A stretch of DNA of 64,000 bases from an uncultured Gammaproteobacteria bacterium (GCA_964491475.1 CAZBFO010000005.1:841-64840), one strand, 5' to 3'. Shown: positions 20,480 through 38,306, numbered from the stretch's first letter. Made by a program: numbers and translations. Notes: a model not told the origin generated them from the sequence alone.

Positions 20480-21280
20480 CTAATGCCGGATAAAAGCCAT
20501 GATGATTTCGAAGACGATCAGCAGGATGACGGTCATTTCCAGAATCTCCGCGCGGCGGTGCTGCAGCGTGTCGAGCATCAGCTCCGAACTGTCTTGGATG
20601 AAGGTCAGCTTGAAGCGGATGGTGCTGAAGCGGTCGTCCAGCTCGAACATCTTGCGCATGTTGATGAACAGCGTCTCCGCCTCTTTGTCCTCCCAAACGA
20701 TGTCAGGCTTGTCGAGCAACGAAAGCTGTCCGACGATGAAGTTGACGATATTGCCGCTCATGCCGATGGTCTTCATGACCTCGCGCGGCGTTGCGATCAG
20801 CGTTCCCTTCGTGGCCAAGTTGATGTGAATCTTCTCGAAGCGCTGCAGGGACTCTTCTACCTGGTTCTCAAGGAAGTCGATAGCCACGGATTGGGCTACT
20901 ACGTGATACACCAACAGCAGCTTTTCAATGGCCAGGTTCTTAAGTCGGACCAAGTTGAACTCGACCGATTCTGGCTGGTCGGCCTCAATAACCACTCCGT
21001 ACTCCTCCACCGGCAACCCGGCCAAAGTGACACCCGGCTCGTCCTCACCCAGCTTGGAAAACCGCTTCAACAGGCGCTCCCTCTCTTTGCGATCGTCGAT
21101 GCCAAAGAGGGTCACCACCCCGAAAGAATACACGCAAATATGCTGGGTTTCCGAGTGTTTGAAAACCAGCAAGTTTCGCTCCTTCCGCCACAGCACCAAG
21201 TCGGGGTTTTTGGCCTCAACTTTGGCTAGGTTGAGCGAATGTTTGATGTAGTGAGCTGAAAGGGAGTATCGGGTCTCCAT
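20480..21280 (-). CDS. DUF155/RMD1-like (YagE family) protein with C-terminal TM helix
   Basis: About 260 aa with a single C-terminal TM (ILEMTVILLIVFEIIMAFI), the architecture typical of the DUF155 family; assigned from memory. Confidence 0.4.
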   Translation of the reverse strand: METRYSLSAHYIKHSLNLAKVEAKNPDLVLWRKERNLLVFKHSETQHICVYSFGVVTLFGIDDRKERERLLKRFSKLGEDEPGVTLAGLPVEEYGVVIEADQPESVEFNLVRLKNLAIEKLLLVYHVVAQSVAIDFLENQVEESLQRFEKIHINLATKGTLIATPREVMKTIGMSGNIVNFIVGQLSLLDKPDIVWEDKEAETLFINMRKMFELDDRFSTIRFKLTFIQDSSELMLDTLQHRRAEILEMTVILLIVFEIIMAFIRH

Positions 21281-21339
21281 AGGCCTCTAGGATACCTTTT
21301 TTCAACCCCACCGTCCACGGGCGTGCGTTTTTGAAATGG

Positions 21340-21600
21340 TGTGCGTGGGCTCTAGGTCCGGGCGGCGGGGCGGCCCTCGGGACACGCTTGCGGACGCGCT
21401 GCGGCGCGTCCTCGCTCGTCCTCGTGTAAAGTCGGCTGCGGCCGACTTTCACTGCGGATGGTCCCGAGGGGTGCCACCCGGTGCCGACCCAGCGCACGCC
21501 AGGCGATTTGAAGCGCACGTCAGTGAAGGGTGACCACTGACGATCGACGGGCGCCTCAACGACCACCTCAAAGAGTGGGGGGGCCCCGCGCGGCCGAGGT
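21340..21600. repeat. GC-rich structured intergenic repeat (copy A of a MITE/REP-like family)
   Basis: Core 21375-21425 is the reverse complement of 24489-24551. It contains the gtcggctgcggccgac hairpin plus ctgcggatggtccc, which are also found in copy C at 35119..35292. Spurious ORF 21336..21533(+) resembles spurious ORF 24384..24638(-) (TLADALRRVLARPR..CGWS). Confidence 0.55.
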
Positions 21601-21620
21601 GGCATCTCTTAGGACTTCTC

Positions 21621-24359
21621 TTAGGACTTCTTCATCTCACCCCATCGCACCCCCGTCGAGACGTTCGCCACAATCGGCACCGCCAGTTTCTTTACGTTCT
21701 CCATTATCGGTATGACTTTGGCGGTGAACTCGTCCACCAAATCCTTTTTGACTTCGAAGACCAGTTCGTCGTGCACTTGCAGGAGCATGCGTGCGCCAGC
21801 ATCGGCACCTTCGCCATAGCGCTCGGCGATGAGCTTGTCGATTTGGACCATGGCTATCTTGATCATGTCGGCGTTGGTGCCTTGGATCGGCATGTTGATG
21901 GCCTGACGCTCGGCTTCGGCGCGCTCGCGCGGATTCATGAATTGGACGTTCTTGAAGAAGCGCTTGCGTCCGAAGAGCGTTTCTACGAAGCCTTCCTTCA
22001 CGATCTGTTCCTTGATGTCCTCCATGTACTTGGCGATGCCTCTGTACAGCGCGAAGTATTTTTCAATGTATTCACGGGCGTCGGCAAAGGAAATTCCGGC
22101 GGCGTCGGAAAGACGGTTGGCGCCCATGCCGTAGAGAATGCCGAAGTTGATGACCTTGGCGATGCGGCGGTGCGAGCCCGCCTCCCTTTCGCCGAACATT
22201 TCGGCGGCGGTGCGCCAGTGAATGTCCTCGCCCTTCTTGAAGGCGTCGATCATCACCTTTTCGTGGGCGATGTGCGCGGCGATGCGCAACTCAATCTGGG
22301 AATAGTCTGCGGCCACGAGCACGTAACCCTTCGTAGCGACGAAACCGTTGCGGACGCGCTTGCCGTATTCCGTCTCGGACGTCGGAATATTCTGCATGTT
22401 CGGATTTGCAGAGGACAGACGGCCGGTGGCAGCGACGGTCTGGTTGAACTCGGCGTGAATGCGACCCGTCTTTGGGTGAACGTAACCCGGAATCGCCTCG
22501 ATGTACGTCGACTGCAGCTTGGCCAGTTCGCGATAACGGAGCACGTCATCAATGATCGGATGCGTACCCTTCAGCTTTTCCAGTTCTGACGCTGCCGTAG
22601 AAAGCGTTTTGTTCTTGGAAGTCTTCTTCAGACCTTCCGGCGAGATGCCGAGCTTCTCGAACAGCACAACCTTCAGCTGCGCAGGCGAGTTGATGTTGAA
22701 TTCTTCGCCCGCATGCTTGTAGATGGCCGCGACGATCTCCTTCAGTTCGGCACCCACGTCGACGGCGATCTTCTTGAAGTAGGGGACGTCGACGGCGATG
22801 CCGTTGCGCTCCATTCGCGCCAGCACGGCGGCCAGCGGCAATTCGATCTCTTCGTTCAGCTTCCGCAAGTCATCGCCGATCAAACGCTTCTCGAACGCCG
22901 AAGCCAGCGGGACGAAGTGCGGCAATTCGACGCTAAGGCGGGCAATGCGCGTTGCCGACGTATCCTCTTTGTCCTCATCAAGAGGAACTCCGCTTTCATA
23001 GGCCAAAATCGCGTTCAAGGCGTGGCGTCGTTCGCCGGAGTGCAGCAAATACGAGGCAATCATCAGGTCAAAAGCATCCGTCGGCAAGGGCAAATCGTTC
23101 GCCAGGAGCACCTTGATTTCGCGGCGCAAGTCGTGACAGACCTTCCTCTGTCGCGAGGCAAAAAACTTCGCCAACAAGGGCTTTCCGTCTTCGAAGGCGG
23201 CCTTGCTGATTACGTAGGTCTTCTTCGCATCGGCGAGGCCAAGCGCGGCGACCTTGGGAAAGGCCGGATCGGCATCTTCGGTTACGAAGCGGAAACCGAC
23301 CTCTGATGCCTTCGACAAAGTTGCCAATGCCGCGGTGAGAGATTTCGTATCGCGAACTTCAATCATGCCGGACAGCGGTGCAGCTGACGCTTGCGGCGCA
23401 TCGCCAAAAAGCGAAGCGTTCGCATTGGCCTTCGTTCCGGCAGCGCCCTCAACCTTCGGTTGCGCGGAAGGCATACGCTCCAGCAGCTTCATGAACTCCA
23501 GTTCCGTGAAAATTTCCGCGACCTTCTCGCGCGTGACCGGATGAAAAACGCACTCCTTCAATTTGAAATCCAAATCCACATCGCGTCGAATACGGCACAG
23601 GTCAAGGGCGACAAGCGCATCCTTTTTGCTGGCAATCAGTTTTTCGCGCACGCCAGCCTTCAGCGCCTGCGCCTTTTTGTCGTTCTTCTCCAACGACTTG
23701 TACAGATCCGGCACCGAGCCGAACTCGATGATCAGCTCCGACCCCGTTTTTTCACCGATGCCGCGCACGCCGGGAATGTTGTCCGACGGATCTCCGCGCA
23801 AGGCCTTGTAATCAATCAGCTGAATCGGCTTGAATCCAAAGCGTTCCTTCACCGCGGCAATGTCGTACACCACGGTGTCAGACATGCCTTTTCGCAGCGT
23901 GAAAACCCTGGTGCGATCGTCCACCAGCTGCAGCGTGTCCATGTCTCCGGTCACGATGATCACTTCCACGTCCTTGCTCTGCTTCTCGGCCTGCAGCGAC
24001 AGCGTGCCGATGACGTCGTCTGCCTCGAAACCCTGCACGGAAAAGACGGGAATCTCCATTGCCTGCAGAATCTTGCGGATAGGATTGACCTGTTCGTACA
24101 GCTCATCGGGCTTCTTTTCGCGCGTGGCCTTGTAGTCGGCGTACAGCTCGTTGCGGAAGGTGCCGCCGGCCAAATCAAAAGTCACCGCCATGTAGTCCGG
24201 CGAGAACTTCTTGATGGCGTTGAGCATGATGGTGGTGAACCCGTAGGCCCCATGCACCACCTGGCCGCTCTTGGTCTGCATCGGCGGCAAAGCATGCCAG
24301 GCGCGGTGAATCAGCGCGTGCCCGTCAATGATCAGGAAAAGTTTTTTGGAGGAAGGCAT
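21621..24359 (-). CDS. polA: DNA polymerase I (5'-3' exonuclease, 3'-5' exonuclease-like and polymerase domains)
   Basis: Conserved motifs RRxAKVINFGILYG and YSQIELR; 912 aa. Confidence 0.9.
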   Translation of the reverse strand: MPSSKKLFLIIDGHALIHRAWHALPPMQTKSGQVVHGAYGFTTIMLNAIKKFSPDYMAVTFDLAGGTFRNELYADYKATREKKPDELYEQVNPIRKILQAMEIPVFSVQGFEADDVIGTLSLQAEKQSKDVEVIIVTGDMDTLQLVDDRTRVFTLRKGMSDTVVYDIAAVKERFGFKPIQLIDYKALRGDPSDNIPGVRGIGEKTGSELIIEFGSVPDLYKSLEKNDKKAQALKAGVREKLIASKKDALVALDLCRIRRDVDLDFKLKECVFHPVTREKVAEIFTELEFMKLLERMPSAQPKVEGAAGTKANANASLFGDAPQASAAPLSGMIEVRDTKSLTAALATLSKASEVGFRFVTEDADPAFPKVAALGLADAKKTYVISKAAFEDGKPLLAKFFASRQRKVCHDLRREIKVLLANDLPLPTDAFDLMIASYLLHSGERRHALNAILAYESGVPLDEDKEDTSATRIARLSVELPHFVPLASAFEKRLIGDDLRKLNEEIELPLAAVLARMERNGIAVDVPYFKKIAVDVGAELKEIVAAIYKHAGEEFNINSPAQLKVVLFEKLGISPEGLKKTSKNKTLSTAASELEKLKGTHPIIDDVLRYRELAKLQSTYIEAIPGYVHPKTGRIHAEFNQTVAATGRLSSANPNMQNIPTSETEYGKRVRNGFVATKGYVLVAADYSQIELRIAAHIAHEKVMIDAFKKGEDIHWRTAAEMFGEREAGSHRRIAKVINFGILYGMGANRLSDAAGISFADAREYIEKYFALYRGIAKYMEDIKEQIVKEGFVETLFGRKRFFKNVQFMNPRERAEAERQAINMPIQGTNADMIKIAMVQIDKLIAERYGEGADAGARMLLQVHDELVFEVKKDLVDEFTAKVIPIMENVKKLAVPIVANVSTGVRWGEMKKS

Positions 24360-24400
24360 CGTATTTGAAACATTTAGCGCGAATCACACGATCATGTACC

Positions 24401-24601
24401 GGCGCCGCGAGCCGGGAGAGCGGGCGGCCAGCCGTGCGGCTGGGAAGGATCGCCCGAGGGACCATCCGCAGGAAACTTCGTCCGCAGGCGAAGTTATCCG
24501 AGGACGAGCGAGGACGCGCCGCAGCGCGTTCGCAAGCGTGTCCCACGGGTGACCTTCCCAGCCGCACGGCTGGCCGCCCGCTCTCCCGGCTCGCGGCGCC
24601 G
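24401..24601. repeat. GC-rich palindromic element with about 48-bp terminal inverted repeats (copy B, inverted relative to copy A)
   Basis: 24401-24449 (ccggcgccgcgagccgggagagcgggcggccagccgtgcggctgggaagg) is the perfect reverse complement of 24553-24601. The internal core matches copy A. Confidence 0.65.
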
Positions 24602-24837
24602 CCCCTCTAAAATCGTTCGCTCCGCTCACTTTTCTCAAAAAAGGATATCACGTCCACAAAAAAACGCCCCTCGTCGGAGAGAGCCGCTTTTCATGGAGGC
24701 CCAGGCGGGATTTGCACCCACGCATAAAGGTTTTGCAGACCTCTGCCTTACTACTTGGCTACTGGGCCGAATGGTTTTCAGCAGGGATATTTTTAGCACT
24801 TCCAGCGTAATGGTGCAACTTGTATACTTGCGGTCGT

Positions 24838-25737
24838 ATGCCCAACACCATTGTCGCCATCGATGCCGGCGGAACCAAGATCAGCTCTGCCTTGATTTCC
24901 TCGAAAGGAAAAATACTCAAGAAAGCCAAAATCCCCACCGAGGCCAGCAAGGGGAAGGAGGCGGTCATGGCGAATCTCATCAAGAGCGTCGACTCTGTTT
25001 TGCAAAAGGACACCGTCGCCATCGGTATCGGCATGGCCGGACTGATTGACGCCAAAAAAGGCGTTTTCCGCGTCGGTCCCAACTTCCCGAAGAACTTCAA
25101 AGACGTTCCCCTGGCCGCTTTGCTTAAAAAGCACTTCAAAAAGCCGGTTTCACTGGACAATGACGTCCATTGTTTTACGCTGGCTGAAGCAAAATTAGGC
25201 GCTGCTAAGCGAAAAAAAACGGTTGTTGGCATTACCCTTGGTACGGGAATTGGTGGGGGCATCGTCATTAACGGTGAGCTTTATCGCGGCCGCGACAACG
25301 CTGCGGGCGAAATCGGACACACCACCATCGGTCTAGGCTCAAAAGCGCTTTGCGGCTGTGGAAAATTCGGCCACTTCGAGGCTTATGCCTCCGGATCAGC
25401 CATGAGCCGACTTTATAAAGACATCACGGGCAAGTCCGTCGAACCTTTAGCCGTAGAAAATGCCGCAAAAAATGGCGATGTTGAGGCAAATAAAGTCTTT
25501 GATATCATGTCCACAGGCCTAGCTGACGGACTGGCCAACGTTATCCACCTCCTTAATCCGGACGTCATAGTAGTTGGCGGCGGATTGGCTCATGTTGATA
25601 TCTTGTGGAAACCTGCTATGAATAAGCTGTCCAAAAGCATTATTTTCCCTGAACTTCTCGATACTCCGGTGGTCCGATCCGTGCTTGCCGGTGACGCCAA
25701 CTTGCTCGGAGCAGCCCTGATTACCAAAAAACTGTGA
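24838..25737 (+). CDS. ROK-family sugar kinase (glucokinase-like)
   Basis: MPNTIVAIDAGGTK.., GIGMAGL.D, C..GCGK.GH..ASG Zn-binding motif. Confidence 0.75.
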   Translation: MPNTIVAIDAGGTKISSALISSKGKILKKAKIPTEASKGKEAVMANLIKSVDSVLQKDTVAIGIGMAGLIDAKKGVFRVGPNFPKNFKDVPLAALLKKHFKKPVSLDNDVHCFTLAEAKLGAAKRKKTVVGITLGTGIGGGIVINGELYRGRDNAAGEIGHTTIGLGSKALCGCGKFGHFEAYASGSAMSRLYKDITGKSVEPLAVENAAKNGDVEANKVFDIMSTGLADGLANVIHLLNPDVIVVGGGLAHVDILWKPAMNKLSKSIIFPELLDTPVVRSVLAGDANLLGAALITKKL

Positions 25738-28619
25738 ACGAATACCGTTTTCGACAACGCGACTTAAGTCACCACGTCCGCCGCACCGGCAGGACTGGTT
25801 TTTTTAAGCCGTCTTCCGGCAGGCCTTCGACACCACGAACTCGGGGCGGACGCGGCCGAAAAATCCTTTCCTGGCTGCTTATCATCGGCGCGGCTGGTTT
25901 TTTTGCGTCTGCGATAGCAGTCGTGGGCCTGTTGGCGTGGGTCGCCAAGGACTTGCCTGATCCGAACAACATCATCCAGAGGAACGTCGCGCAGACGACC
26001 ACCATCTACGATCGCACGGGAAAAACCGTCCTGTACCAGATTCACGGCGACCAAAAACGGACCGTCGTCGAACTGACCGACATTTCCAAGTACGCCATCA
26101 ACGCCACCATCACCGCCGAAGACCGCGAATTCTACAATCACGGCGGCTTCGATCCGAAGGGGATGTTGCGTGCGCTCTACAACGACGTCTTCCGCCACAA
26201 GAGCGGTACGAACTTGCAGGGCGGTTCCACCATTACCCAGCAGTTCATCAAGAAATCGGTCTTGAGCGACAAGCAGACCCTGACGCGCAAAATCAAAGAA
26301 CTGCTGCTGTCGTTGGAAATCGAGCAAAAGTTCAGCAAGGATCAGATTCTCAAGCTGTATCTCAACGAGATTCCCTACGGATCGGTCTCCTACGGCATCG
26401 AATCGGCGGCGCAGACGTTCCTGGGAAAGAGCGCCAAGGACCTTAGTTTGTCCGAAGCGGCGCTGCTGGCCTCGCTGCCACGCGGCCCGACATACTATTC
26501 GCCGTACGGAAACAACCGTGATGCGCTCATCACCCGTCAGCATTACATCATCGACAGCATGGCCCAGCTCGGCTACGTCTCCAAAGACGAGGCCGAAGAA
26601 GCCAAAAAAGACGACGTCCTTTCGCGTGTCAAACCGAAGCGCGAGGCGATCATGGCGCCGCACTTCGTCTTCTACGTGAAGCAGATGCTCGCGGACGCCT
26701 ACGGCGACAACACCGTCGAAGGCGGCGGCTTGAGCGTCATCACCACGCTCGACGTCACCAAGCAGCAGAACGCGGAGCAGGCGATAGCCGACGGCGCGCC
26801 GATTCTCGCCAAGTGGAAAGCCAACACCGCGGCCATGGCAGCCATCGACGCCCACAGCGGCGACATCCTGGCAATGGTCGGCTCGCCCGACTATTTCGAC
26901 GACGCCAATAACGGAAAGTTCAACAACCTGCTCGGACGCCTGCAACCCGGTTCGTCCATCAAGCCGATCGTCTACGCTTCGGCTTTCGAAAAGGGCTTCA
27001 CGCCTGGCACGGTGGTAGATGACGTGAAGACAGAGTTCAGCACTTCGTCGCAGTCCTACTCACCCAACGACTACGACTCCAAGGAGCGCGGTCCCATCAC
27101 CCTGAAAGAAGCGCTGGCCGGATCGCTGAACATCCCTGCCGTGAAAGTCCTGTACCTCACCGGCTTCGACAAGTTCGAGGACTTCGCCAAGCGCGTCGGC
27201 TACACCACCTTCGGCGATCGCAGCACTTACGGCTTGTCGCTGGTGCTCGGCGGCGCGGAAGTGCGCCCGCTGGAACACATCGACGCCTACACGGCCTTCG
27301 CCCAGGAGGGAATGTGGCACCCCAGCCGCGCCATTCTCAAAGTAACCGACCGAGACGGCAAGGTGCTCGAGGATCACACCGGCGAGGATACCGCCAAGAA
27401 GGCATTCGAGCCGGAAATCGCACGACTGATCACCAACATCATGTCGGACAACAACTTGCGCGCCTACATCTTCGGCGCCAAGAACCACCTGACGCTGGCC
27501 GATCGCCCCGTCGCCGCCAAGACCGGTACCACCAATAACAACAAGGACGCTTGGACCATCGGCTTCACGCCATCGCTCGTGGCCGGCGTCTGGGTCGGCA
27601 ACTCTAAGGGCGGCTTCATGAAGGCAGGCGCGGACGGCAGCATCGTCGCCGCACCCATCTGGAACGAATTCATGACCAAGTCGCTTGCCGGAACGCCGGC
27701 GGAAACGTTCACCGACCCGCAACCGGTCACCACCGGCAAACCGATTCTCGACGGCAACAAGAACGCCCAGGCTTCGGTGAAGGTCGACAAGGCTTCCGGA
27801 AAGCTGGCGACCGACATGACTCCGGCTGACTACGTCGAAGAGCGCTACTACGGCCTGCCCCATTCCATCCTGTACTTCGTCAACAAGGACGACCCGCGCG
27901 GACCCGCGCCTGAACACCCCGAGAATGATCCGCAATTCGCCAATTGGGAAAAGGCCATCAATGACTGGGCCACGAAACAGAACATCGTGACCACCGGCGC
28001 TCCTCCCACGGAATACGACGACATCCACGTGACGGCAAACATCCCTACGGTGAGCTTCGTCAATCCCGTCGACGGCGGTTCCATCTCACAGCGCACGTTC
28101 ACGCCCCAAGTGAGCGCGTATGCGGCCCGCGGAGTAACCAGGGTCCAATACCGCATCGACGGCGAAACCATCGGCGAGGTGTCCAATTACCCGTCGCTCG
28201 GATCAATCCCGATTCCCAATCACATCGGCAAGGGCTTCCACACCCTCACGGCAAATGCCTTCGACGATGTGGGTAACACGGGTACAACGCAGATAACGGT
28301 GAACATCACCGCCGATCCAGGACCGCTGGGCATCGAGTGGTCGTCACCCTACTACTCCCAGGAGATCAGCAAATCGAGCTTCCCCTTCAACATCTCCGTA
28401 AGCGTGGATGATCGACAGAGCATCAATCACCTGGAAGTCACCGCAGTCAACGAGAACGGCGATGCCATCGACATCGGTTCGATAGACCATCCGCCTCTTC
28501 CGAATCTGTCATTCACCTGGAACGACCCGCCGCCAAAAGGAAAATACGACGTCACGATTCACGCGACACTCGTAACAGGGGACGAACGCACGGAAAAAAT
28601 TCCCGTCATCGTAAAGTAG
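25734..28619 (+). CDS. Bifunctional penicillin-binding protein 1A (GT51 transglycosylase + transpeptidase) with C-terminal Ig-like domain extension
   Basis: N-terminal TM, GT51 motifs (ITAEDREFYNHGGFD, GGSTITQQ), transpeptidase SxxK/SxN/KTG region, plus two extra beta-sandwich domains at the C-terminus. Confidence 0.85.
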   Translation: MNEYRFRQRDLSHHVRRTGRTGFFKPSSGRPSTPRTRGGRGRKILSWLLIIGAAGFFASAIAVVGLLAWVAKDLPDPNNIIQRNVAQTTTIYDRTGKTVLYQIHGDQKRTVVELTDISKYAINATITAEDREFYNHGGFDPKGMLRALYNDVFRHKSGTNLQGGSTITQQFIKKSVLSDKQTLTRKIKELLLSLEIEQKFSKDQILKLYLNEIPYGSVSYGIESAAQTFLGKSAKDLSLSEAALLASLPRGPTYYSPYGNNRDALITRQHYIIDSMAQLGYVSKDEAEEAKKDDVLSRVKPKREAIMAPHFVFYVKQMLADAYGDNTVEGGGLSVITTLDVTKQQNAEQAIADGAPILAKWKANTAAMAAIDAHSGDILAMVGSPDYFDDANNGKFNNLLGRLQPGSSIKPIVYASAFEKGFTPGTVVDDVKTEFSTSSQSYSPNDYDSKERGPITLKEALAGSLNIPAVKVLYLTGFDKFEDFAKRVGYTTFGDRSTYGLSLVLGGAEVRPLEHIDAYTAFAQEGMWHPSRAILKVTDRDGKVLEDHTGEDTAKKAFEPEIARLITNIMSDNNLRAYIFGAKNHLTLADRPVAAKTGTTNNNKDAWTIGFTPSLVAGVWVGNSKGGFMKAGADGSIVAAPIWNEFMTKSLAGTPAETFTDPQPVTTGKPILDGNKNAQASVKVDKASGKLATDMTPADYVEERYYGLPHSILYFVNKDDPRGPAPEHPENDPQFANWEKAINDWATKQNIVTTGAPPTEYDDIHVTANIPTVSFVNPVDGGSISQRTFTPQVSAYAARGVTRVQYRIDGETIGEVSNYPSLGSIPIPNHIGKGFHTLTANAFDDVGNTGTTQITVNITADPGPLGIEWSSPYYSQEISKSSFPFNISVSVDDRQSINHLEVTAVNENGDAIDIGSIDHPPLPNLSFTWNDPPPKGKYDVTIHATLVTGDERTEKIPVIVK

Positions 28620-28627
28620 CGATGAGA

Positions 28628-28660
28628 AAAAGAGGTCCGACCGATTGTCGGACCTCTTTT
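28628..28660. terminator. Bidirectional hairpin terminator between PBP1A (+) and dnaN (-)
   Basis: aaaagaggtccgac-cgatt-gtcggacctctttt, perfect 14-bp stem. Confidence 0.7.
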
Positions 28661-28673
28661 AAGTCATCACCCG

Positions 28674-29831
28674 TTACTGCCTGATGGGCATCACGATGTA
28701 CAGGTACTCCTGCATTGCATGTCCGTCCGCATATCCGCGCATCACGCACGGGCTCATGCCGTCGATCAGCTGCAGGATGACATGCTCGGAATCGATGTTG
28801 TTCACTCCATCGAGGAAATACTTGAAGTTCACCGTTATCGACCCCTGCTTGCCCTGTATTGCCCCTCCAAGCTCCACAGCGTGCTCACCGGTCTGATTAT
28901 TGGTACTGGAGAGCCTGATCGATGAGTCTGGCGTAAAGGTAACGAGAATGTCGTTCAATCCCGTTCTGGAGAACAGGCTGGCCGTTTTCACTGCTCGTGA
29001 CAATTCCTCCTTGCTGATCACCACCTCGGTTTCAAACCGGTCGGGGATAAGTTGTCGATAATCGGGATACTTACCCTCAATAGTCCGGGAAATCAGCTCA
29101 ACCGTGTCGTACACGAACTGCACCTGATTGTCGCTGACCTGAATTTCAATATTCGCCGGATTGTCCAAAGCGTCTCGGAAGACGCCCAGGATGCGGATAA
29201 CCTCCGAAACCGTCCGAGAAGGCACAATTATCGAGAATGGCTCGGAAATCTGCGTGCTGACCTTGGTATCGACCGAGATAGTCCTTTCAGCAAGCCTGTA
29301 GCTGTCCGTAGCAGCCAAAATCAAATCTAATCCACCGTCCCTGGGGACAAACTTGAACAAAACACCGCTAATTTCCGGGCGAGACTCATTCGGAGCAACC
29401 GCAAACAGCACCTGTCCGACAGCCTTCTTCAGATCCGCAACCTTCACGGTGAACTTGCGTTGACTCTCAATCGTCGGAATCAGAGGAAACTCGGAGGCGG
29501 CAATGCCATTCAGCTTCGTCTGGTAGGTTCCACAAGCCACTGTGAGCGCGTTACCGGACATTTCCACGTCCACGCGCTCCTTGGGCAGCAAAGAGACGTA
29601 ATCAGCAAACAACTTTGATGGCACCGTGAACTCACCGCCAGCCTCAATCTTCCCGCGAACCGCGCATTTCACGGCAATTTCCAAGTTGGTAGCCATGAAC
29701 CTCAACACTTTGTCGTCCGCCTTGATAAGAACGTTACCGAGGATCGGCAAGTTCACGTTCTTGCCGGCGATGTGGCTCACGATAGAGAGTCCTTGATTCA
29801 AATTTTCTTGCGTGTAGGAAAATTTCATCAC
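28674..29831 (-). CDS. dnaN: DNA polymerase III beta sliding clamp
   Basis: MKFSYTQENLNQGLSIVSHIAGK.., three-domain clamp. The ATG start is probably at 29828. Confidence 0.9.
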   Translation of the reverse strand: MMKFSYTQENLNQGLSIVSHIAGKNVNLPILGNVLIKADDKVLRFMATNLEIAVKCAVRGKIEAGGEFTVPSKLFADYVSLLPKERVDVEMSGNALTVACGTYQTKLNGIAASEFPLIPTIESQRKFTVKVADLKKAVGQVLFAVAPNESRPEISGVLFKFVPRDGGLDLILAATDSYRLAERTISVDTKVSTQISEPFSIIVPSRTVSEVIRILGVFRDALDNPANIEIQVSDNQVQFVYDTVELISRTIEGKYPDYRQLIPDRFETEVVISKEELSRAVKTASLFSRTGLNDILVTFTPDSSIRLSSTNNQTGEHAVELGGAIQGKQGSITVNFKYFLDGVNNIDSEHVILQLIDGMSPCVMRGYADGHAMQEYLYIVMPIRQ

Positions 29832-29975
29832 AACAATATCGTTCTTAAATATATTTATATATTACTGTGGTGGTTGTAGGTGAGTGGATAGCGGGGAAAA
29901 GTCACCTACGATTGCTGGGTTGAGCCACCTGAACCTGTGGAAGCATGTGGGGTACCACGGGAGAACTGGTGGTAC
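29832..29975. promoter_or_regulatory. Candidate oriC part II: AT-rich unwinding stretch plus DnaA-box-like motifs in the dnaA-dnaN spacer
   Basis: caacaatatcgttcttaaatatatttatatattactgtgg (AT-rich 29832-29872) followed by gtggatagc, ctgtggaag and ttccacagg. Confidence 0.4.
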
Positions 29976-29979
29976 AACC

Positions 29980-30025
29980 CGGGGAAAAAGCCAGGGGCAC
30001 CCTGCTTTCCGCAAGGTGCCCCTGG
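29980..30025 (-). terminator. dnaA terminator
   Basis: ccaggggcacc...ggtgcccctgg 11-bp stem followed (minus strand) by cttttt. Confidence 0.6.
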
Positions 30026-30096
30026 TTCTGTCCACCGGACATCCTAGGTTTTTCCCACGGTTGGCCTCACAGCTTCCACAGGTTATGCGCCGCGGA

Positions 30097-31500
30097 CTAT
30101 GTGTTGTACAAGCGCTGCTTGATGAGGTCGAGATCCTGCCGGACCTTCGGACTGGTTTCCAACTCACCTGCAATCTTGGAGTAGGCGTGCATGGCCGTGG
30201 TGTGGTCGCGACCGCCGAGTTCGTGACCGATTGACGGATAGGAGGCGCCGATTTCCTCACGCATCAGGTACATGATGACCTGACGGGGGAAAGCGAGGCG
30301 CTTTTCGCGGCATTTTCCGCTCATATCGGCCACCGTAACGTCGTAGTAGGAGGCAACCGTGTTGACGATGTGCTTGGCCGTGACGTTCTTCTTGGACTGG
30401 GTGGGACCGAAGCTGGAAAGCAGAGTTTTGGCTGCATCTAGCGTCGGTTTGGTGTTCTTGAACTGGTGGTAGGCGATGATTTTGTTGAGTGCACCTTCCA
30501 ATTCACGGACATTGGACTGGATAACTGTGGCAATGTAGCGGACGATTTCGGTATCCAGGTCATAGCTGCGCTCCTTGCACTTTGTTTCAAGGATAGCGAT
30601 GCGGGTTTCAAAGTCCGGGCTGGAGATATCCACCGTCATTCCCCACTCGAAACGGGAGATGAGGCGGTGCTCGAGGGCTGGAATCTGCTTTGGCGGCCGG
30701 TCAGAGGTGAGGACAACCTGCTTATTGTTCTGATGCAGGGCGTTGAAGGTGTGGAAGAACTCTTCTTGAGTGCCATCCTTGCCCGTCAGGAACTGGATGT
30801 CGTCGATCATCAGCAGGTCGACCGAGCGATAGGTGTCCTTGAATTCCTTGCCGCGGCCGCTTTTGACAGCGTGGATAAATTCGCTGGTGAACTTTTCACA
30901 GGTCACATACAGGACTTTGGCCTCCGGATTCTTGGTGAGAAGAGCGTTTCCAATGGCCTGGAGCAAGTGCGTTTTACCGAGACCGACACCGCCATAGACG
31001 AACAGCGGGTTGTACTTAGTGCCCGGATTCTCCGAGACAGCCATGGCCGCCGCGTGCGCCAGTTCGTTTCCCTTACCGACGATAAAGGTTTCAAAGGTGT
31101 ACTTAGCGCTCAACTTATTGTCAGTAGAATACTCTTTTTGCGCTAAGTTATGCGAAGTTTCAGGCCTTACGATAGTAGCAACTTCGTTGGCGGTTGGCGC
31201 GATGACCTGGAACGTTTCCTGGGACAACGGCTTATTGCCGAGGTTCATGGGGCGGACGTCCACCTTGTAAATGATCTCCTTGAAACCGGCGTTACCCACA
31301 GTCTGGAGCGACTTGAGGATAGAAGCGTTGTACTTCTTTTCCAACCAGGCCTTGGTGAACGTGTTGGGAACGCTGATGACGACCCTTTGGCCCTCGCAGG
31401 ACGAGATGAAGGTGTTCTTGAACCACGTGGTGAAGTTCGCCTTGCTCAATGTGAGCTCCAATTCACCGAGAACAGCCTGCCAAAGTTCGTGCGTATTCAT
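30097..31500 (-). CDS. dnaA: Chromosomal replication initiator DnaA
   Basis: True start MNTHELWQAVLGELE.. (ATG complement at about 31500). AAA+ Walker A GGVGLGKTHL, C-terminal HTH (AFPRQVIMYLMRE..), DnaA signature. Confidence 0.9.
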   Translation of the reverse strand: MNTHELWQAVLGELELTLSKANFTTWFKNTFISSCEGQRVVISVPNTFTKAWLEKKYNASILKSLQTVGNAGFKEIIYKVDVRPMNLGNKPLSQETFQVIAPTANEVATIVRPETSHNLAQKEYSTDNKLSAKYTFETFIVGKGNELAHAAAMAVSENPGTKYNPLFVYGGVGLGKTHLLQAIGNALLTKNPEAKVLYVTCEKFTSEFIHAVKSGRGKEFKDTYRSVDLLMIDDIQFLTGKDGTQEEFFHTFNALHQNNKQVVLTSDRPPKQIPALEHRLISRFEWGMTVDISSPDFETRIAILETKCKERSYDLDTEIVRYIATVIQSNVRELEGALNKIIAYHQFKNTKPTLDAAKTLLSSFGPTQSKKNVTAKHIVNTVASYYDVTVADMSGKCREKRLAFPRQVIMYLMREEIGASYPSIGHELGGRDHTTAMHAYSKIAGELETSPKVRQDLDLIKQRLYNT

Positions 31501-31775
31501 AGTATTGATGCGTCGAAAGACAAAGGCGAAAATATTTTGAGGCTGAATACAGTCTAAGACAGCAAAACATATTTGAAAAGCGGCCGAACTGGGCACAGAT
31601 TGTGTACCAATTGTGGATATCTTTCGATTTAAAAGCAAGTGTGGATGCACTGTGGGTTAGTCAACCCCATATGATGTGTTATCAACAGGTTCTTAACACC
31701 ATATGTGGTGTGTCTTGCCAAAAATGGGCAATTCTGGCAGGATAGAGCGACTTCGAATCAGATAAGTGATTTGTT
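31501..31775. promoter_or_regulatory. Candidate oriC part I / dnaA promoter region with DnaA boxes
   Basis: TGTGGATAT (31612-31620), TGTGGATGC (31640-31648), TTATCAACA and TGTGGGTTA in the dnaA-rpmH intergenic region; AT-rich tttcgatttaaaagc. Confidence 0.5.
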
Positions 31776-31913
31776 ATGCCCAAGCGCACACTCCAGCGCA
31801 ACCCGCGCAAGATGAAGAAAAAGCACGGTTTTCTGAACCGCATGCGCACCACCGGTGGCCGCGTCGTTCTCAAGCGTCGCCGCGCCAAGGGTCGCAAGAA
31901 GCTCTCCGTATAA
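31776..31913 (+). CDS. rpmH: 50S ribosomal protein L34
   Basis: [45 protein letters not shown], found by manual translation (too short for the ORF track). Confidence 0.9.
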
Positions 31914-31915
31914 AC

Positions 31916-31945
31916 AAAAAAGCCCAATAAAATGGGCTTTTTTGG
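31916..31945 (+). terminator. Hairpin/attenuator after rpmH
   Basis: aaaaaagcccaataaaatgggctttttt. Confidence 0.6.
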
Positions 31946-31957
31946 ACCCATCGGAAC

Positions 31958-32323
31958 GTGCTACAGTGTTTTCATATGTTGGCAAAGTCAGCCCGACTCA
32001 ATGCGGAAAAGGATTACTCACGCCTTTTTTCTAAAGGACGTGCTTTTCATGCGCGCGGCATCATCATGAAGGTCATGAAGAGCAAGGCCGAAGCTACCAA
32101 AGTCGGATTTGTAGTCAGTACGAAGGTGGCAAAGAAGGCCAACGTGCGCAACTTGGTCAAACGGCGCATGCGCGAAATCATCCGAAAGCATTACGCCCAG
32201 ATCGAAAGGGGCCTCGACATAGCCTTCAAGGCAAAAGTCGAGGCAAAATCAATGGAATTTGCGGAGGTGGAAAAGTCGATGCTTGAGCTTCTTTGGAAAG
32301 CAGGCATTTTGCCACGAACATGA
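31958..32323 (+). CDS. rnpA: RNase P protein component
   Basis: Position after rpmH, basic about 115-aa protein (..GFVVSTKVAKKANVRNLVKRRMREI..). The start may be the internal M at 31976. Confidence 0.7.
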   Translation: MLQCFHMLAKSARLNAEKDYSRLFSKGRAFHARGIIMKVMKSKAEATKVGFVVSTKVAKKANVRNLVKRRMREIIRKHYAQIERGLDIAFKAKVEAKSMEFAEVEKSMLELLWKAGILPRT

Positions 32324-32628
32324 GATCGGATCAGTTCCTCGTCTTCAAAATTATTTTTGGACTTCCCAAGATTGCCGTCTTGCAGACTATTCGTTTATAC
32401 CAAAAGCTTTTTTCTCCGGATCACGGTCCTTTGCGAGCGCTGTATCCGTATGGATACTGCAAATTCAAACCGACCTGTTCACAGTACACGTACGAGGCTG
32501 TGGAAAATATGGGGGTAACTCGCGGACTTATCCTCGGTGCCGTGCGCATCATGCGATGCAATCCATGGAACAAAGGGGGATACGATCCGGTTCCCGTGAA
32601 GAGAATGACTGATGCAGATAAAAAATAA
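32320..32628 (+). CDS. yidD: Membrane protein insertion efficiency factor YidD
   Basis: CKFKPTCSQYTYEAVENMG...RIMRCNPWNKGGYDPVP is the canonical YidD motif. Confidence 0.75.
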   Translation: MRSDQFLVFKIIFGLPKIAVLQTIRLYQKLFSPDHGPLRALYPYGYCKFKPTCSQYTYEAVENMGVTRGLILGAVRIMRCNPWNKGGYDPVPVKRMTDADKK

Positions 32629-32651
32629 TGGCTCTAGTGAGCCATTATTTT
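32627..32651. terminator. Bidirectional hairpin between yidD and the DUF167 gene
   Basis: aatggctc-tagt-gagccatt + atttt. Confidence 0.55.
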
Positions 32652-32858
32652 AAATATCTTCTTCGAAGAGGTTTCACCTTTCACCAACAGTACGCGTGAT
32701 TTTGGGACATTCATGTATTCCGCCAACATATCCACAACATCCTTGTTGGCTTTGCCTTTTTCGGGCGCGACGTTGGTCCAGATTTTGAGTGAGCCGTCCG
32801 GGGACGCTTCGACGGCACGCTTGCGGGCGCCTGCTCGCACGGTAACGGTGACCAACAT
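32634..32858 (-). CDS. DUF167 (YggU-like) small protein
   Basis: MLVTVTVRAGARKRAVEASPDGSLKIWTNVAPEKGKANKDVVDMLAEYMNVPKSRVLLVKGETSSKK fits the YggU/DUF167 family. Confidence 0.55.
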   Translation of the reverse strand: MLVTVTVRAGARKRAVEASPDGSLKIWTNVAPEKGKANKDVVDMLAEYMNVPKSRVLLVKGETSSKKIFKIMAH

Positions 32859-32864
32859 ACTCTT

Positions 32865-33737
32865 CTACTTTGCCTTGCCGCGAATCTTTTTCAGAATCGC
32901 CAGGTCGTCAGCGACGTGATCGGGTTCGGTTTCCAAAATCAGGTTCACGTTCTTGAAACCTTTGGAGCCGACGATTGCCTTGAACCCCTCCAGTCCGATG
33001 AAACCTTTGCCGAGATGCTCGTGGCGGTCCTTGTGTTCGCCGATGTCCACCTTGGAGTCGTTGCAATGGGAAAGTTCCAGACGGTCCAGGCCAATGGCTT
33101 TGTCGAATGACTTCATGGTTTTCGTCACCGCGTCGGCATCGCGCAGGTCGTAGCCAGAGGCGAAAGCGTGGGCCGTGTCGAAGCAAACCCCCAACATTTC
33201 GTGATCCGCGCCGGCCAGCATCGCGGCGACCTCCTCGAAGGTGTCGCCCATGACCATGCCGGCGCCGGCCGAAATCTCGATGAGCAGGCGCGTGGTGCCC
33301 TTGTAGCCCTTGAGGATCTTCTTGATGCCCTCGACGACCAGCTTGAGACCCATCTCCTCGCCGACGCCCGAGGCGGAGCCGGGGTGGAACATCATCGCGG
33401 TGACGCCGAGCAGGCTGCCGCGCTCCAGTTCGCCACGCAGGATTTCCACGGAACCGTTGCGGATGCGCTCCTCTTTGGAGGCCAGATTGATGATGTACGG
33501 CGCGTGAATGTAGCACTTCTCAAACGAGTGCTTCTCGCAAAGTTCGCGGAATTTGGTGATTTCTTCCTTGGGTATGGGGCCGACGCGGCTGCCTTGCGGC
33601 GGACGCGAGAAGAACTGGAAGGTTTCGAGGCCGAGCTGGGCCGCGTTCAAGGGTGCGTTGGAAACGCCGCCGGAAGCGGATACGTGTGCGCCGAATTGCA
33701 TAGGGAAAACAAAAGTGGTGAACCTGACGTTCACCAC
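32865..33737 (-). CDS. nfo: Endonuclease IV (AP endonuclease, TIM barrel)
   Basis: Conserved His/Glu/Asp metal ligands (HAPYIINL, HCNDSK, ILETE), about 280 aa. Confidence 0.8.
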   Translation of the reverse strand: MVNVRFTTFVFPMQFGAHVSASGGVSNAPLNAAQLGLETFQFFSRPPQGSRVGPIPKEEITKFRELCEKHSFEKCYIHAPYIINLASKEERIRNGSVEILRGELERGSLLGVTAMMFHPGSASGVGEEMGLKLVVEGIKKILKGYKGTTRLLIEISAGAGMVMGDTFEEVAAMLAGADHEMLGVCFDTAHAFASGYDLRDADAVTKTMKSFDKAIGLDRLELSHCNDSKVDIGEHKDRHEHLGKGFIGLEGFKAIVGSKGFKNVNLILETEPDHVADDLAILKKIRGKAK

Positions 33738-33765
33738 TTTAGCACCAATTGGCAGGAAATCTCCA

Positions 33766-35055
33766 TTACTTCTTACCGGTGGCGGCGTCGCGGAGCATCG
33801 CCAGCACCTTGCGGTTGCGCATCGAGGATCGGACGTAGTCCTGGTAATCCTCGGTGCGAATCTGCTGCTGCGCTTCGGGATTGTTGGCGTAGCGGTTGAT
33901 GAGGTTACCGATCTCGCCCAGCAATTCCTCGTCCGATACCTCCACCTTTTCCTTCTCGCCGATTTCGCGGATGAGGACCGCAGTCTTCACGCGCTTCACT
34001 GCCTGCGGCACGAACTCCATTTTGAGATCCTCTTCGGTCTTCTTGATGTTGAGCAGGTAGTCGGGCCAGGTGGCGCCCTGGTCGGCGACGCCGTGCTTGA
34101 GTTCGTCCAGCATGCGCTTCACTTCGTCGTTGAGGATGACTTCCGGAACGTCTTCGAAGCGTGCCTTCTCGACCAGCTGGTCCAGCACGGCGAGTTCGAC
34201 ACGCTGGGTTTCCTTGGTCTTGGCCTCTTCGAGCATGTTGGTCTTGATGAGCTCGCGCAGCTTGGCGATGCTCTCCTGACCGACCTTCTTGGCGAGCTCG
34301 TCATCGATGGGCGGGTGCTCAAGGTCGTACACTTCCTTGAGCGTCACCGCGAAGTCGACGTCCTTGCCGGCCAAGTTCTTCTGGAAGTGGTCGGGGTTGA
34401 ACTTGAGGGTGAATTCGCGCTTCTCGCCCTCCTTCATTCCCAGCACTTTGTCCCTAAGACCGGGAATGTAATATTCCTCGTTCAGGAAAATCCCGTGGTT
34501 GCGTGCCTGGCCGCCGTCGACGGCGACGCCACCGATGGTCAGGTCCATGTCGACGACAATCTTGTTCTTGTCGGTGGCTTCGTGGCTGGCGCGTACTTCC
34601 TTGGTGTGCATCGATTGCAGCTCCTTGAGCGTGGCTTCGACGGCGCTGTCTTCCACCTTGGGTTCTTTGGTCTCCACCTTGACGGCCTTGTAGTCAGGCA
34701 TGGTGGTCACGTCCGGAACGGCGGCGACGGTGGCGGTGAAAGAGATCGGATTGCCCGGAGCGAGTTTGGTGACCTCGATCTTCGGCTCGCCGTAGCTGTG
34801 CACGTGCTCCTTTACGACGGCGTTGACGTAGTGCTTTCGGATGATGGCGGGCAGGGCGGTTTCGTAGATGGCCATTTCGCCATACGCCTGCTTGACCATG
34901 TCGTAAGTGGCCTTGCCGGGGCGGAATCCCGGCATCGGCTTGTCCTCGGTGAGCTTGCGGGCGGCGTTCTCGAGCTCGTTCTTGACCTCGTCGAGAGACA
35001 CCTCGCAGGTGACTTCGACCATTCCCTTCGGGAGTTTTTTGATGGTGGCAGACAT
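33766..35055 (-). CDS. tig: Trigger factor
   Basis: True start MSATIKKLPKGMVEVTCEV.. (ATG complement 35053-35055); PPIase and C-terminal domains. The N-terminal extension in the ORF track derives from the upstream palindromic repeat. Confidence 0.85.
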   Translation of the reverse strand: MSATIKKLPKGMVEVTCEVSLDEVKNELENAARKLTEDKPMPGFRPGKATYDMVKQAYGEMAIYETALPAIIRKHYVNAVVKEHVHSYGEPKIEVTKLAPGNPISFTATVAAVPDVTTMPDYKAVKVETKEPKVEDSAVEATLKELQSMHTKEVRASHEATDKNKIVVDMDLTIGGVAVDGGQARNHGIFLNEEYYIPGLRDKVLGMKEGEKREFTLKFNPDHFQKNLAGKDVDFAVTLKEVYDLEHPPIDDELAKKVGQESIAKLRELIKTNMLEEAKTKETQRVELAVLDQLVEKARFEDVPEVILNDEVKRMLDELKHGVADQGATWPDYLLNIKKTEEDLKMEFVPQAVKRVKTAVLIREIGEKEKVEVSDEELLGEIGNLINRYANNPEAQQQIRTEDYQDYVRSSMRNRKVLAMLRDAATGKK

Positions 35056-35118
35056 AAAGGCAAAGCAAAATAAGCCGTAATGACTTCGGACTTTAGTCGA
35101 AAAATGATGGAGTGTCAA

Positions 35119-35292
35119 ACCGCGAGCGGCGCAGCCGCGGGGCGGCCGGGGGCTTGAGGGGTCGGTGTCGGATTTGGCCTGCGGGCCAAATCCGCACCTA
35201 AGCCTCGCCAAAAAATCGGCTGCGGCCGATTTTTTGTCTGCGGATTCCCCCTCAAGCCCCCGGCCGCCCCGCGGCTGCGCCGCTCGCGGTTT
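35119..35292. repeat. GC-rich palindromic element (copy C) with about 45-bp terminal inverted repeats and nested hairpins
   Basis: aaccgcgagcggcgcagccgcggggcggccgggggcttgagggg ... cccctcaagcccccggccgccccgcggctgcgccgctcgcggtt. The interior holds ggatttggcc-tgcg-ggccaaatcc and aaaaaatcggc-tgc-ggccgatttttt hairpins. It shares the tcggctgcggccga / ctgcggat core with copy A. Confidence 0.65.
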
Positions 35293-35435
35293 GACGCGTG
35301 CCATCGTTGTTTGGCTGGGCGTCCTGCGGATGTGCGGTGGGCGCGAGGTTGGTTGATGTTTGTGGCTCGCACCGGGGCTAAATAAAAACGTGCCGCATGC
35401 TGCGGCCGTTTTTATTTAGTGCTCATTACTCCGGG

Positions 35436-35867
35436 TTAGACGGTTTGATGTTTTTGGATGAAGGCAGCGGTTGCTGCGATTGTTTCGGCGTGCAGGGATG
35501 GATCGCTTTCGGCCACCCAGACGGCGAAGTTGTAGAGGCGACGTGCGTCGATGGTCAGCCACTTACCGTTCAGTTCCAAAAAAACCAACAAGGCTGTCAC
35601 GGCGACGCGCTTGTTTCCGTTTTGAAAAGGGTGATTTTTGATGAGCAAATAAAAGAGGGCCGCAGCCTTGTCGGTAAGCGTGGGATAAAATTCCTTGCCG
35701 CCGAATGATTGCGAGATGGTTTGCAGGCACGATTCCAATTTTTCCGGATAGCGTGTTTTGAAGGGAGGGATTGGTTCGCCCCAAGCCAATAACTCTGCAG
35801 CAAGCGAATGCGCAACGAGTTCAACGTCCTCGATAGTCAGGAGGCGAGGCATACTACTCCTTCGCAA
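35436..35867 (-). CDS. Doc (death-on-curing) / Fic-family toxin
   Basis: Conserved Fic/Doc motif HPFQNGNKRVAVTA; about 140 aa; start overlaps/abuts the stop of the upstream HTH gene. Confidence 0.7.
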   Translation of the reverse strand: MRRSSMPRLLTIEDVELVAHSLAAELLAWGEPIPPFKTRYPEKLESCLQTISQSFGGKEFYPTLTDKAAALFYLLIKNHPFQNGNKRVAVTALLVFLELNGKWLTIDARRLYNFAVWVAESDPSLHAETIAATAAFIQKHQTV

Positions 35868-36105
35868 GAAGCTTCAGCGTTTCACCGTACTCCTGGACGA
35901 CTTTTTTCACGGCATCTTTGATTTCCGTTTTTTTGTCCTGCGGCACTTCTTTCATGCACTTGGCCAGCTCGGACAGAGGAATGACAAAAGTGCGCCCGAC
36001 TTTTTCGGCGCTGATTTTGCCTGATTTGATCCAGCGGCCAATGGTGATTCGCTCAACGCCACAGAGTTTGGCTGCCTCGTTGGCTGAATAAAACTGCTTT
36101 TCCAT
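35854..36105 (-). CDS. HTH (excisionase/MerR-like) antitoxin partner of Doc
   Basis: 83 aa, N-terminal HTH (ANEAAKLCGVERITIGRWIKSGKISAEKVGRTFVIP), translationally coupled to Doc. Confidence 0.6.
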   Translation of the reverse strand: MEKQFYSANEAAKLCGVERITIGRWIKSGKISAEKVGRTFVIPLSELAKCMKEVPQDKKTEIKDAVKKVVQEYGETLKLLAKE

Positions 36106-36115
36106 ATTTTTCGCC

Positions 36116-36164
36116 TGTTACAATATGTAACATTATCTATATAGATATGTTACAATATGTAACA
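36116..36164. promoter_or_regulatory. Two tandem 17-bp perfect palindromes (TGTTACAATATGTAACA) flanking a tatctatatagata palindrome: probable TA operator/promoter
   Basis: Copies at 36116-36132 and 36148-36164, 10-45 bp upstream of the antitoxin start codon. Confidence 0.65.

Positions 36165-36260: not shown

Positions 36261-38306
<2,046 letters not shown>

Follow-up and report, generated by a model that had tools for sequence, protein, structure and literature searches.

Nested-hairpin palindromic repeats with a conserved apex around polA and tig of a Patescibacteria-like genome

Introduction

Among the hairpin-forming intergenic repeats of bacteria, the REP, BIME and REPIN elements of Proteobacteria, which are linked to RAYT, are GC-rich intergenic hairpins that occur in either orientation, lack a target-site duplication (TSD), carry a motif beside the hairpin and evolve as a folded unit. 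Here we analyse three elements with these same properties, named A, B and C, which lie around polA and tig in a 64-kb stretch of DNA (GCA_964491475.1, CAZBFO010000005.1:841-64840; the whole stretch is called the window below, and positions are counted from its first letter). REP units, however, are 20-40 nt long, begin with a 5' GT[AG]G and are present in tens to hundreds of copies beside a RAYT gene, whereas A, B and C measure 150-200 nt and are few. While REPINs conserve the stem, A, B and C conserve the apex, i.e. two hairpins with identical loops. A 5' GT[AG]G as in REP units is absent, the conserved motif being CTGCGG(AT) in the loops and 3' of hairpin 2.

The Correia elements (NEMIS) of Neisseria and the ERIC or IRU elements of Enterobacteria resemble A, B and C in that they form a single long hairpin, here of 100-150 bp, are intergenic, are inserted at promoters or leaders, vary in presence and can contribute promoter hexamers. 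In contrast to A, B and C, Correia elements have conserved 26-bp terminal inverted repeats (TIRs) and a TA target duplication, and ERIC is conserved over its whole length. Neither Correia nor ERIC elements have copy-specific perfect arms around a three-way-junction apex, and neither shows sequence similarity to A, B and C. In their behaviour the three elements are closest to REP/REPIN, ERIC and Correia-type hairpin repeats and not to a miniature inverted-repeat transposable element (MITE) with TIRs and TSDs.

Two further systems are relevant for comparison. Quasipalindrome correction by intrastrand template switching (the Ripley model), reportedly studied in E. coli by Lovett and colleagues, is a mutational process and not an element family; it would explain arms that are perfect yet diverge between copies as well as the inverted extension into the flank, and for A, B and C it is suggested by sequence patterns only. 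The inverted terminal repeat (ITR) of adeno-associated virus (AAV), a parvovirus, is a hairpin in the shape of a T on which an HUH Rep protein acts. Its long A-A' stem, two small internal palindromes, motif at the hairpin tip and beside the stem and possible flip/flop are all reminiscent of A, B and C. This likeness is one of fold only; the three elements are chromosomal and internal and show no sequence relation, linear replicon or Rep gene.

The host looks like a GC-rich Patescibacteria-like (Uhrbacteria-like) genome. Patescibacteria (Candidate Phyla Radiation, CPR) have very small genomes, and to our knowledge few repeats have been described in them; text searches of the literature on MITE or REP elements in Patescibacteria gave nothing relevant. 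A, B and C represent a previously undescribed family of nested-hairpin ('T-shaped' foldback) interspersed repeats with two subtypes. Within the class of bacterial hairpin-forming intergenic repeats they are unusual in their conserved three-way-junction apex, their copy-specific perfect arms and the inverted capture of flanking DNA.

Results and Discussion

Three copies share one nested-hairpin architecture

Copies were compared within the window using a repeat finder, blastn-short (E ≤ 0.05), MAFFT and regular-expression hairpin scans. A, B and C are related GC-rich palindromic intergenic elements and form a real family. Read on the strand that carries CTGCGGAT (plus for A and C, minus for B), the parts follow each other in the same order, namely 5' arm, hairpin 1, linker, hairpin 2, two nucleotides, CTGCGGAT and 3' arm (Table 1). 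The full element comprises 150-200 bp with an asymmetric core of 70-80 nt. A long GC-rich stem carries this core at its apex; the stem sequence is copy-specific and, in the intact copies, perfectly self-complementary. Both inner hairpins of A, B and C are capped by C(TGCG)G, which the hairpin scans found invariant in 9 of 9 hairpins, and the linker is pyrimidine-rich and has CCTCG in each copy. The two subtypes differ in hairpin 1, which reads GGACGCG/CGCGTCC in type 1 (A and B) and CGGATTTGGC/GCCAAATCCG in type 2 (C), and in the linker (TCGCTCGTCCTCG and CACCTAAGCCTCGCC, respectively). MAFFT alignment of the cores places the gaps in hairpin 1 inconsistently between the two subtypes.

According to the repeat finder, the core of A (21374-21470) is 85% complementary to that of B (24453-24549) over 97 nt, and the two paralogous cores are 87% identical in blastn-short. 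Thus, A and B form an inverted pair on either side of polA (21621-24359, minus strand), as an earlier note on this DNA had proposed. That note extended A over 21340-21600; the core shared with B in inverted orientation is borne out, but the family part reaches only from about 21349 to 21495, and 21496-21600 consists of small hairpins unrelated to the family. The outer arms of A, 35 nt each, form a degraded outer stem. In B and C, for which perfect TIRs of 48 bp and TIRs of about 45 bp with nested hairpins had been claimed, the arms are indeed exact, over 49 and 48 nt. Folded as single-stranded DNA (ssDNA), B and C reach -117 kcal/mol (z = -18) and -113 kcal/mol (z = -20), while for A the z-score is only -4.5. 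A is located between the polA stop and the start of the DUF155 gene with its motif strand antisense to both, and B has tRNA-Cys (24694-24768, minus) on one side and the polA start (24359) on the other.

The pattern CTGCGG-N(20-50)-CTGCGG-N(8-14)-CTGCGGAT occurs in the window only at A (plus), B (minus) and C (plus), with 0 occurrences expected from shuffled sequence. The motif TCGGCTGCGGCCGA is exact in A and C and has two mismatches in B; with up to two mismatches allowed, it is matched 8 times versus 1.5 expected, a number reached in 0 of 100 shuffles. CTGCGGAT on its own is not significantly enriched in the window (6 seen versus 2.7 expected). None of the at least 145 three-motif pattern matches listed, from 120 unrelated genome loci, has both hairpins, demonstrating that the architecture is no by-product of GC-rich sequence. 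A scan of metagenome contigs with AANNNNNNCTGCGGNNNNNNTTNNCTGCGGATGG gave 11 matches, all of them coding or chance and none with a hairpin. The solitary extra CTGCGGAT near C may be a relic or chance.

Table 1. Positions of the elements, their parts and other features (window coordinates unless a contig is given)
Feature	Position	Strand	Remarks
Copy A, type 1, decayed	21349-21495	+	arms 71% complementary; core 85% complementary to that of B
A 5' arm	21349-21383	+	
A hairpin 1	21392-21411	+	ggacgcgcTGCGgcgcgtcc
A linker	21412-21427	+	
A hairpin 2	21428-21449	+	aaagtcggcTGCGgccgacttt
A third motif	21452-21459	+	CTGCGGAT
A 3' arm	21461-21495	+	
Copy B, type 1, intact	24400-24601	-	
B perfect arms, 49 nt	24400-24448 / 24553-24601		104 nt between arms; inner imperfect stem inside
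B third motif	24464-24471	-	CTGCGGAT
B hairpin 2	24474-24495	-	
B linker	24496-24511	-	
B hairpin 1	24512-24531	-	
Copy C, type 2, intact	35114-35295	+	between Fic/Doc cassette and tig
C perfect arms, 48 nt	35114-35161 / 35248-35295		86 nt between arms
C hairpin 1	35169-35194	+	cggatttggccTGCGggccaaatccg
C hairpin 2	35209-35236	+	caaaaaatcggcTGCGgccgattttttg
C third motif	35238-35245	+	CTGCGGAT
Solitary extra CTGCGGAT	35324-35331	+	29 nt outside C
tig promoter	35090-35120	-	-35 TTGACA 35118-35113; 17-nt spacer; -10 TAAAGT 35095-35090; promoter scan 10/12
Separate structured region, not of the family	50440-50620	-	between NYN-domain gene and pnp start
PF05635 genes of 70% relatives	L124 13692-14054; L125 5838-6200; L139 9718-10092, 11191-11580		
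T3Sed10_216 repeats	L004 3458-3531; L033 4218-4289; L051 1-225		

The cores are conserved and both hairpins covary

To follow the elements through evolution we used a relative with 87% PolA identity (Logan run SRR24204751; partial contigs L123, L140, L142 and L145) and six relatives with 70-83% PolA identity (L122/L141/L143, from GCA_023246195.1 and an ENA assembly; L124/L125; L137; L138; L139). Between the window and the 87% relative, 4-fold degenerate sites are 46% identical in polA, 62% in DUF155 and 65% in tig, and the element arms with their flanks align at 55-63% with many gaps. Orthologous cores, in contrast, are 96-100% identical overall outside the hairpin-2 stem of B: the core of A matches its ortholog at 46 of 48 positions, and that of B at 25 of 25 (3' half of hairpin 1 plus linker) and at 12 of 12 (CTGCGGATGGTC). 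All differences between B and its ortholog fall within the hairpin-2 stem and are compensated (AACTTCGC/ACGAAGTT versus AACGCGGG/CCCGCGTT). The orthologs are closer to each other than are the paralogs A and B, which indicates vertical inheritance under nucleotide-level constraint and not recent independent insertions.

Covariation is seen in both hairpins, with double-sided changes in 6 of 8 pairs of hairpin 1 (95% of cells paired) and 4 of 9 pairs of hairpin 2 (97% of cells paired), although these counts come from 4-5 sequences and are indicative only. For neither hairpin did any of 500 shuffles reach the covariation score, and in slid controls for both the fraction of paired cells falls to 12-56%. 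No stem pair varies on one side only, and each of the three mismatches reads A.C on the motif strand. Compensatory pairs together with an invariant loop are thus present, as in a generic conserved structured element. It should be noted that a process correcting palindromes could mimic selection in the covariation test.

The look-alike open reading frames (ORFs) that had been called spurious are found at 21336-21533 (plus) and 24384-24638 (minus), both reading ..DTLA[DN]ALRRVLARPR..CGWS.. These frames result from conservation at the nucleotide level, as a coding constraint would allow synonymous change. A small protein encoded by them was considered and rejected because the cores are identical where synonymous sites should diverge, and the segment that does vary keeps to the complementarity of the hairpin.

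The elements were gained by insertion

The gene order ROK, tRNA-Cys, polA, DUF155, holA, M50, S20, RmuC is kept in all relatives examined. In the 87% relative, a type-1 element is present upstream of polA in the orientation of B (L123 1-110) and another one beside DUF155 in the orientation of A (L140 1-50), so that the inverted arrangement around polA is kept. A type-2 element follows directly after the polA stop (L123 2888-2984) and matches C at 90% over 41 nt in blastn-short. No element is found upstream of tig in the 87% relative (L142) or in an 83% relative (L143), and no family member in another 7.5-kb contig of the 87% relative (L145). The relatives at 70-83% have short gaps and no family member at any polA-flanking site examined; their gap downstream of polA is 13-158 nt long versus 340 nt in the window. 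Since these sites are empty in the more distant relatives, the elements were gained by insertion into intergenic DNA. The further copies expected of a family thus exist in the 87% relative. Judged by presence and absence at these sites, the window species and the 87% relative inherited the elements from a common ancestor that gained them once the relatives at ≤83% PolA identity had branched off. C in the window line and the type-2 copy after polA in the line of the 87% relative are, on the same comparison, later and separate gains.

In an independent Logan assembly of the species to which the window belongs, contigs end at 21395, the start of a 31-mer common to A and B, and at 24429, which is 30 nt into the arm of B. 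These contig ends at the A/B repeat confirm the sequences and show that the elements fragment de Bruijn assemblies. An origin from a plasmid, phage or virus was rejected, as the plasmid, phage and viral collections gave no matches save one chance 49-nt match to Streptomyces.

Some other inserts and repeats came to light in these comparisons. One 70% relative has an extra insert of about 120 nt directly after tRNA-Cys (L139 5803-5925) with hairpins of its own (GTCTCATGC...GCATGAGAC). It includes GGCTCGCGGCGC and GCTCGTCCTC, words also present in the arm of B and in the type-1 linker; these 12-nt matches (E ~0.8) could be chance or a very old relic. Small PF05635 genes (23S rRNA intervening sequence protein (IVP)/Avd-like) lie between DUF155, holA and the M50 peptidase gene in the 70% relatives and are missing from the window, which is another sign that intergenic sites of this conserved block accept insertions. 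Finally, the unrelated metagenome-assembled genome (MAG) T3Sed10_216 of the PVC group (PXAS01) has its own repeated intergenic unit, CCTGCGGATGCTTCGCCG(G/T)(A/C)CTGCGGAT, arranged in tandem and in both orientations, with copies of more than 150 nt that are about 95% identical on two contigs. This unit has the CTGCGGAT word, which the scan pattern demanded, but no hairpins, and its link to the A/B/C family may be coincidental.

Perfect arms and a captured tig flank

Between copies as well as between orthologs, no part is less conserved than the arms, yet they are perfect within B (49/49) and C (48/48). At C, one arm runs into the promoter of tig (Table 1). Upstream of tig, the element-free relatives L142 and L143 read G-TTTGACA-C, a 17-nt spacer and C-TAAAGT (GTTTGACAC...CTAAAGT conserved), and the native GTTTGAC (35120-35114, minus) is at the same time the last 7 nt of the arm of C. 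An inverted copy, GTCAAAC, is present at the far end of C, where the plus strand reads GTTTGAC at 35289-35295. The type-2 copy of the 87% relative does not start with GTCAAAC, so these bases are no element terminus. As 7 nt at a given position would be complementary by chance with a probability of ~6 x 10^-5, the palindrome of C took in host flank in inverted form. This flank-derived part is confined to the terminal nucleotides of the arms (at least 7). No direct target duplication is found at the flanks of B (gtac / cccc) or C (gagt / gcgt).

Re-templating of one arm from the other would account for the perfection of the arms, their divergence between copies and their outward growth. The possibility that the arms derive wholly from the local flank was rejected for B, as its GC-rich arms do not resemble the unoccupied site of L122. 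Likewise, a single large composite palindrome in the 87% relative that would enclose the type-2 and type-1 cores was rejected, its arm-to-arm score of 14 being below the shuffle mean of 16.

Effects on neighbouring genes and their annotation

A -10-like box, GTGATATCC, upstream of B aligns with the promoter region of the relatives, and because B is downstream of this conserved box it is probably part of the polA 5' leader. With C abutting the -35 box of tig, the elements may alter the expression of core genes. A role as terminators, which had also been considered, is unlikely: a scan of 20400-36400 revealed no intrinsic terminator at the outer stems of A, B or C, where a T-tract is absent, and ordinary terminators after the neighbouring tRNA-Cys, Fic gene, dnaA and H+-PPase gene. 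Rfam 15 at its gathering score reports only tRNAs in the window. Scans by E-value gave nothing for A and B, and for C only generic long-hairpin matches at no more than half the threshold (MIR1858, 68 bits versus 137; VA RNA, 30 versus 62).

C also affects gene calling. The tig ORF (33766-35304, minus) runs 83 codons upstream through C, because C has no stop codon in that frame, and would yield 512 aa compared to the real 429 aa; the protein collection records the 429-aa form. As the elements break short-read assemblies and create spurious ORFs and extended gene calls, masking is advised in such MAGs.

A foldback repeat and its alternatives

We favour A, B and C as a lineage-specific, insertion-derived foldback repeat whose core is read as an intrastrand fold and whose arms are kept by template switching, a reading that we consider about evenly balanced between right and wrong. 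The element would act as an intrastrand fold, in extruded or single-stranded DNA and possibly in RNA, and this fold would present the three CTGCGG motifs to a trans-acting protein that spread the element, now uses it, or both. Intrastrand template switching or hairpin-templated repair would keep the arms perfect and let them grow outward, and such growth would explain the inverted copy of the tig -35 flank in the palindrome of C.

Several points weigh against the foldback repeat. The strong conservation of the core is unlike that of decaying selfish copies, and a host function fits at least as well. For template switching, the signs are a single 7-nt duplication of flanking DNA and arms that are perfect. 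Of the 20 window ORFs scanned against Pfam, none is a transposase, HUH, Y1/RAYT/TnpA or recombinase gene. With every copy within 14 kb of dnaA, the role may be a local, origin-proximal one. Furthermore, 12.6 kb of other contigs of the 87% relative have no further copy, none was found in plasmid, phage, viral and metagenome collections, and in total just 3 full and 3 partial copies have been seen.

A more far-reaching form of this proposal is a functional, self-maintaining T-shaped DNA hairpin whose CTGCGG motifs are read by a lineage-specific protein, e.g. an HUH-type nickase or recombinase, with the core under purifying selection and the arms constantly re-templated, which would keep them perfect while they advance into the flanks. 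Parvoviral Rep on its ITR and XerCD on the forked hairpin of CTX phage would be analogues for such a reading of the extruded or single-stranded fold. We regard it as speculative and improbable. If true, it would constitute a new kind of structure-specific genomic site in reduced Patescibacteria genomes. A core that outlasts synonymous saturation, together with 48-49 bp arms that are perfect yet copy-specific, makes these loci a natural case for studying how palindromes are maintained and what reads them.

The host function could be exerted at the RNA level. The elements would then be cis-acting RNA structures, i.e. protein-binding, RNase III-processing or stabilising modules in transcripts with C(UGCG)G loops, and the polA mRNA would contain B in the 5' leader and, in the 3' region, the core from A as reverse complement. 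Core conservation beyond synonymous saturation, the covarying stems, the probable transcription of B with polA from downstream of the conserved -10-like box and the retention of the A/B inverted arrangement in the 87% relative all speak for this explanation, as does cUGCGg, which we take to be an RNA tetraloop of the UNCG type. However, the motif strand is sense for B and antisense for A. In C it runs antisense to the genes on either side, and C itself is located upstream of the tig -35 box. One-sided pair changes, and hence G-U pairs, are absent, whereas functional RNA stems usually show some, and the three mismatches are A.C on the motif strand. In addition, relatives at ≤83% PolA identity have the same genes without the elements, which are therefore dispensable, and Rfam has no matching family, only the generic long-hairpin scores far below threshold. 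Taken together we consider an RNA function rather unlikely, though it is the strongest of the alternatives.

Mobilisation as a REP/REPIN-type element by RAYT (Y1 HUH) or by an IS200/IS605-like transposase, acting on ssDNA of the lagging-strand template, would agree with the hairpins and the conserved adjacent motif. The complementary strand reads 5'-ATCCGCAG-NN-hairpin, similar to the REP 5' motif followed by a hairpin; both TSDs and a conserved TIR are absent, and the copies are intergenic and gained or lost between relatives. With oriC assumed near dnaA (~30-32 kb), where the cumulative GC skew is lowest, the motif strand is on the presumed lagging-strand template in 4 of 5 orientable copies, a number that is not significant at n=5. 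This orientation is weak evidence, as the core can flip by recombination between perfect arms. A GTAG-type 5' tetranucleotide is missing, the unit measures 150-200 bp and not 20-40 bp, no RAYT or TnpA gene was found in the window among the ORFs scanned, and the copy number seen is very low. We therefore doubt that a RAYT-like enzyme mobilised these elements.

An origin-proximal site, that is a cruciform or hairpin that a replication, segregation or nucleoid protein would bind or be loaded on and that would be maintained for its place near oriC, is distinctly improbable. It would be in line with the location of all three copies within 14 kb around dnaA-dnaN (28674-31650), the parS-like palindromes nearby (16423-16438 and 16544-16559) and the conservation of the cores at orthologous sites. 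On the other hand, relatives with the same synteny of the origin region lack the elements, the clustering was judged post hoc from three copies, and we know of no origin-associated motif that matches CTGCGG.

A classical MITE, i.e. a deletion derivative of a DDE-transposase insertion sequence (IS) recognised by its TIRs and flanked by direct TSDs, as in the label chosen earlier, is hardly credible: despite the long TIRs, small size, intergenic position and variable presence between relatives, the arms differ among A, B, C, L123up, L123down and L140, with only short GC-rich words in common around a conserved centre, no direct repeat flanks B or C and the terminal 7 nt of C are host promoter sequence duplicated inversely.

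Genomic setting and other features of the window

In the records of the best PolA relatives the organism is given as Patescibacteria or Candidatus Uhrbacteria. Several close relatives bear the labels Binatia or Eisenbacteria in third party annotation (TPA) MAG records; errors of binning or labelling may be the cause. The GC content of the window is 58.8%, presumably unusually high for a Patescibacteria-like genome. The region is a replication-origin neighbourhood with rpmH-rnpA-yidD, dnaA and dnaN and a minimum of the cumulative GC skew at ~28-32 kb. The two parS-like palindromes are near-identical and 16 nt long (TGTTTCACGTGAAACA and TGTTCCACGTGAAACA), intergenic and 105 nt apart; we take them to match the parS consensus tGTTNCACGTGAAACa, which would suit the origin-proximal place.

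A weaker copy of the family had been claimed after pnp at 50440-50620. This region has no similarity to A, B or C (MAFFT; blastn-short, E ≤ 0.05), and it does not follow pnp: that gene begins at 50381 on the minus strand, so the region is upstream of it. On the minus strand, 50382-50625 is predicted to fold as RNA into a long irregular hairpin (-110.8 kcal/mol, z = -6.2) and may act as the leader of pnp in autoregulation of the RNase III/PNPase type.

Next to C, between the H+-PPase gene and tig, a small HTH-like (helix-turn-helix) ORF and a Fic/Doc gene (35436-35867; Pfam Fic, E = 3e-12) occupy 35385-36230 on the minus strand. This cassette comes with a promoter-like site and a terminator of its own, and it also carries a repeated operator-like palindrome (tgttacatattgtaacat) at 36116-36164. 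At the same site the 83% relative has nothing but a 162-nt gap (L143), and the 87% relative a different gene of 157 aa (L142 244-717). The site resembles a hot spot of insertion, with element C at its tig-proximal edge.

At the other end of polA, a 12-nt tandem duplication (tcttaggacttc x2, plus strand) at 21604-21627 overlaps the stop codon. Further away, both ends of the window encode giant repetitive proteins of 1892 aa (6336-12014, minus) and 2623 aa (52985-60856, plus). Positions 2004-2446 and 57113-57555 are 84% complementary over 443 nt, and other such pairs are found between 1-12000 and 53000-60900; apparently, paralogous surface-protein repeats are encoded here on the two strands.

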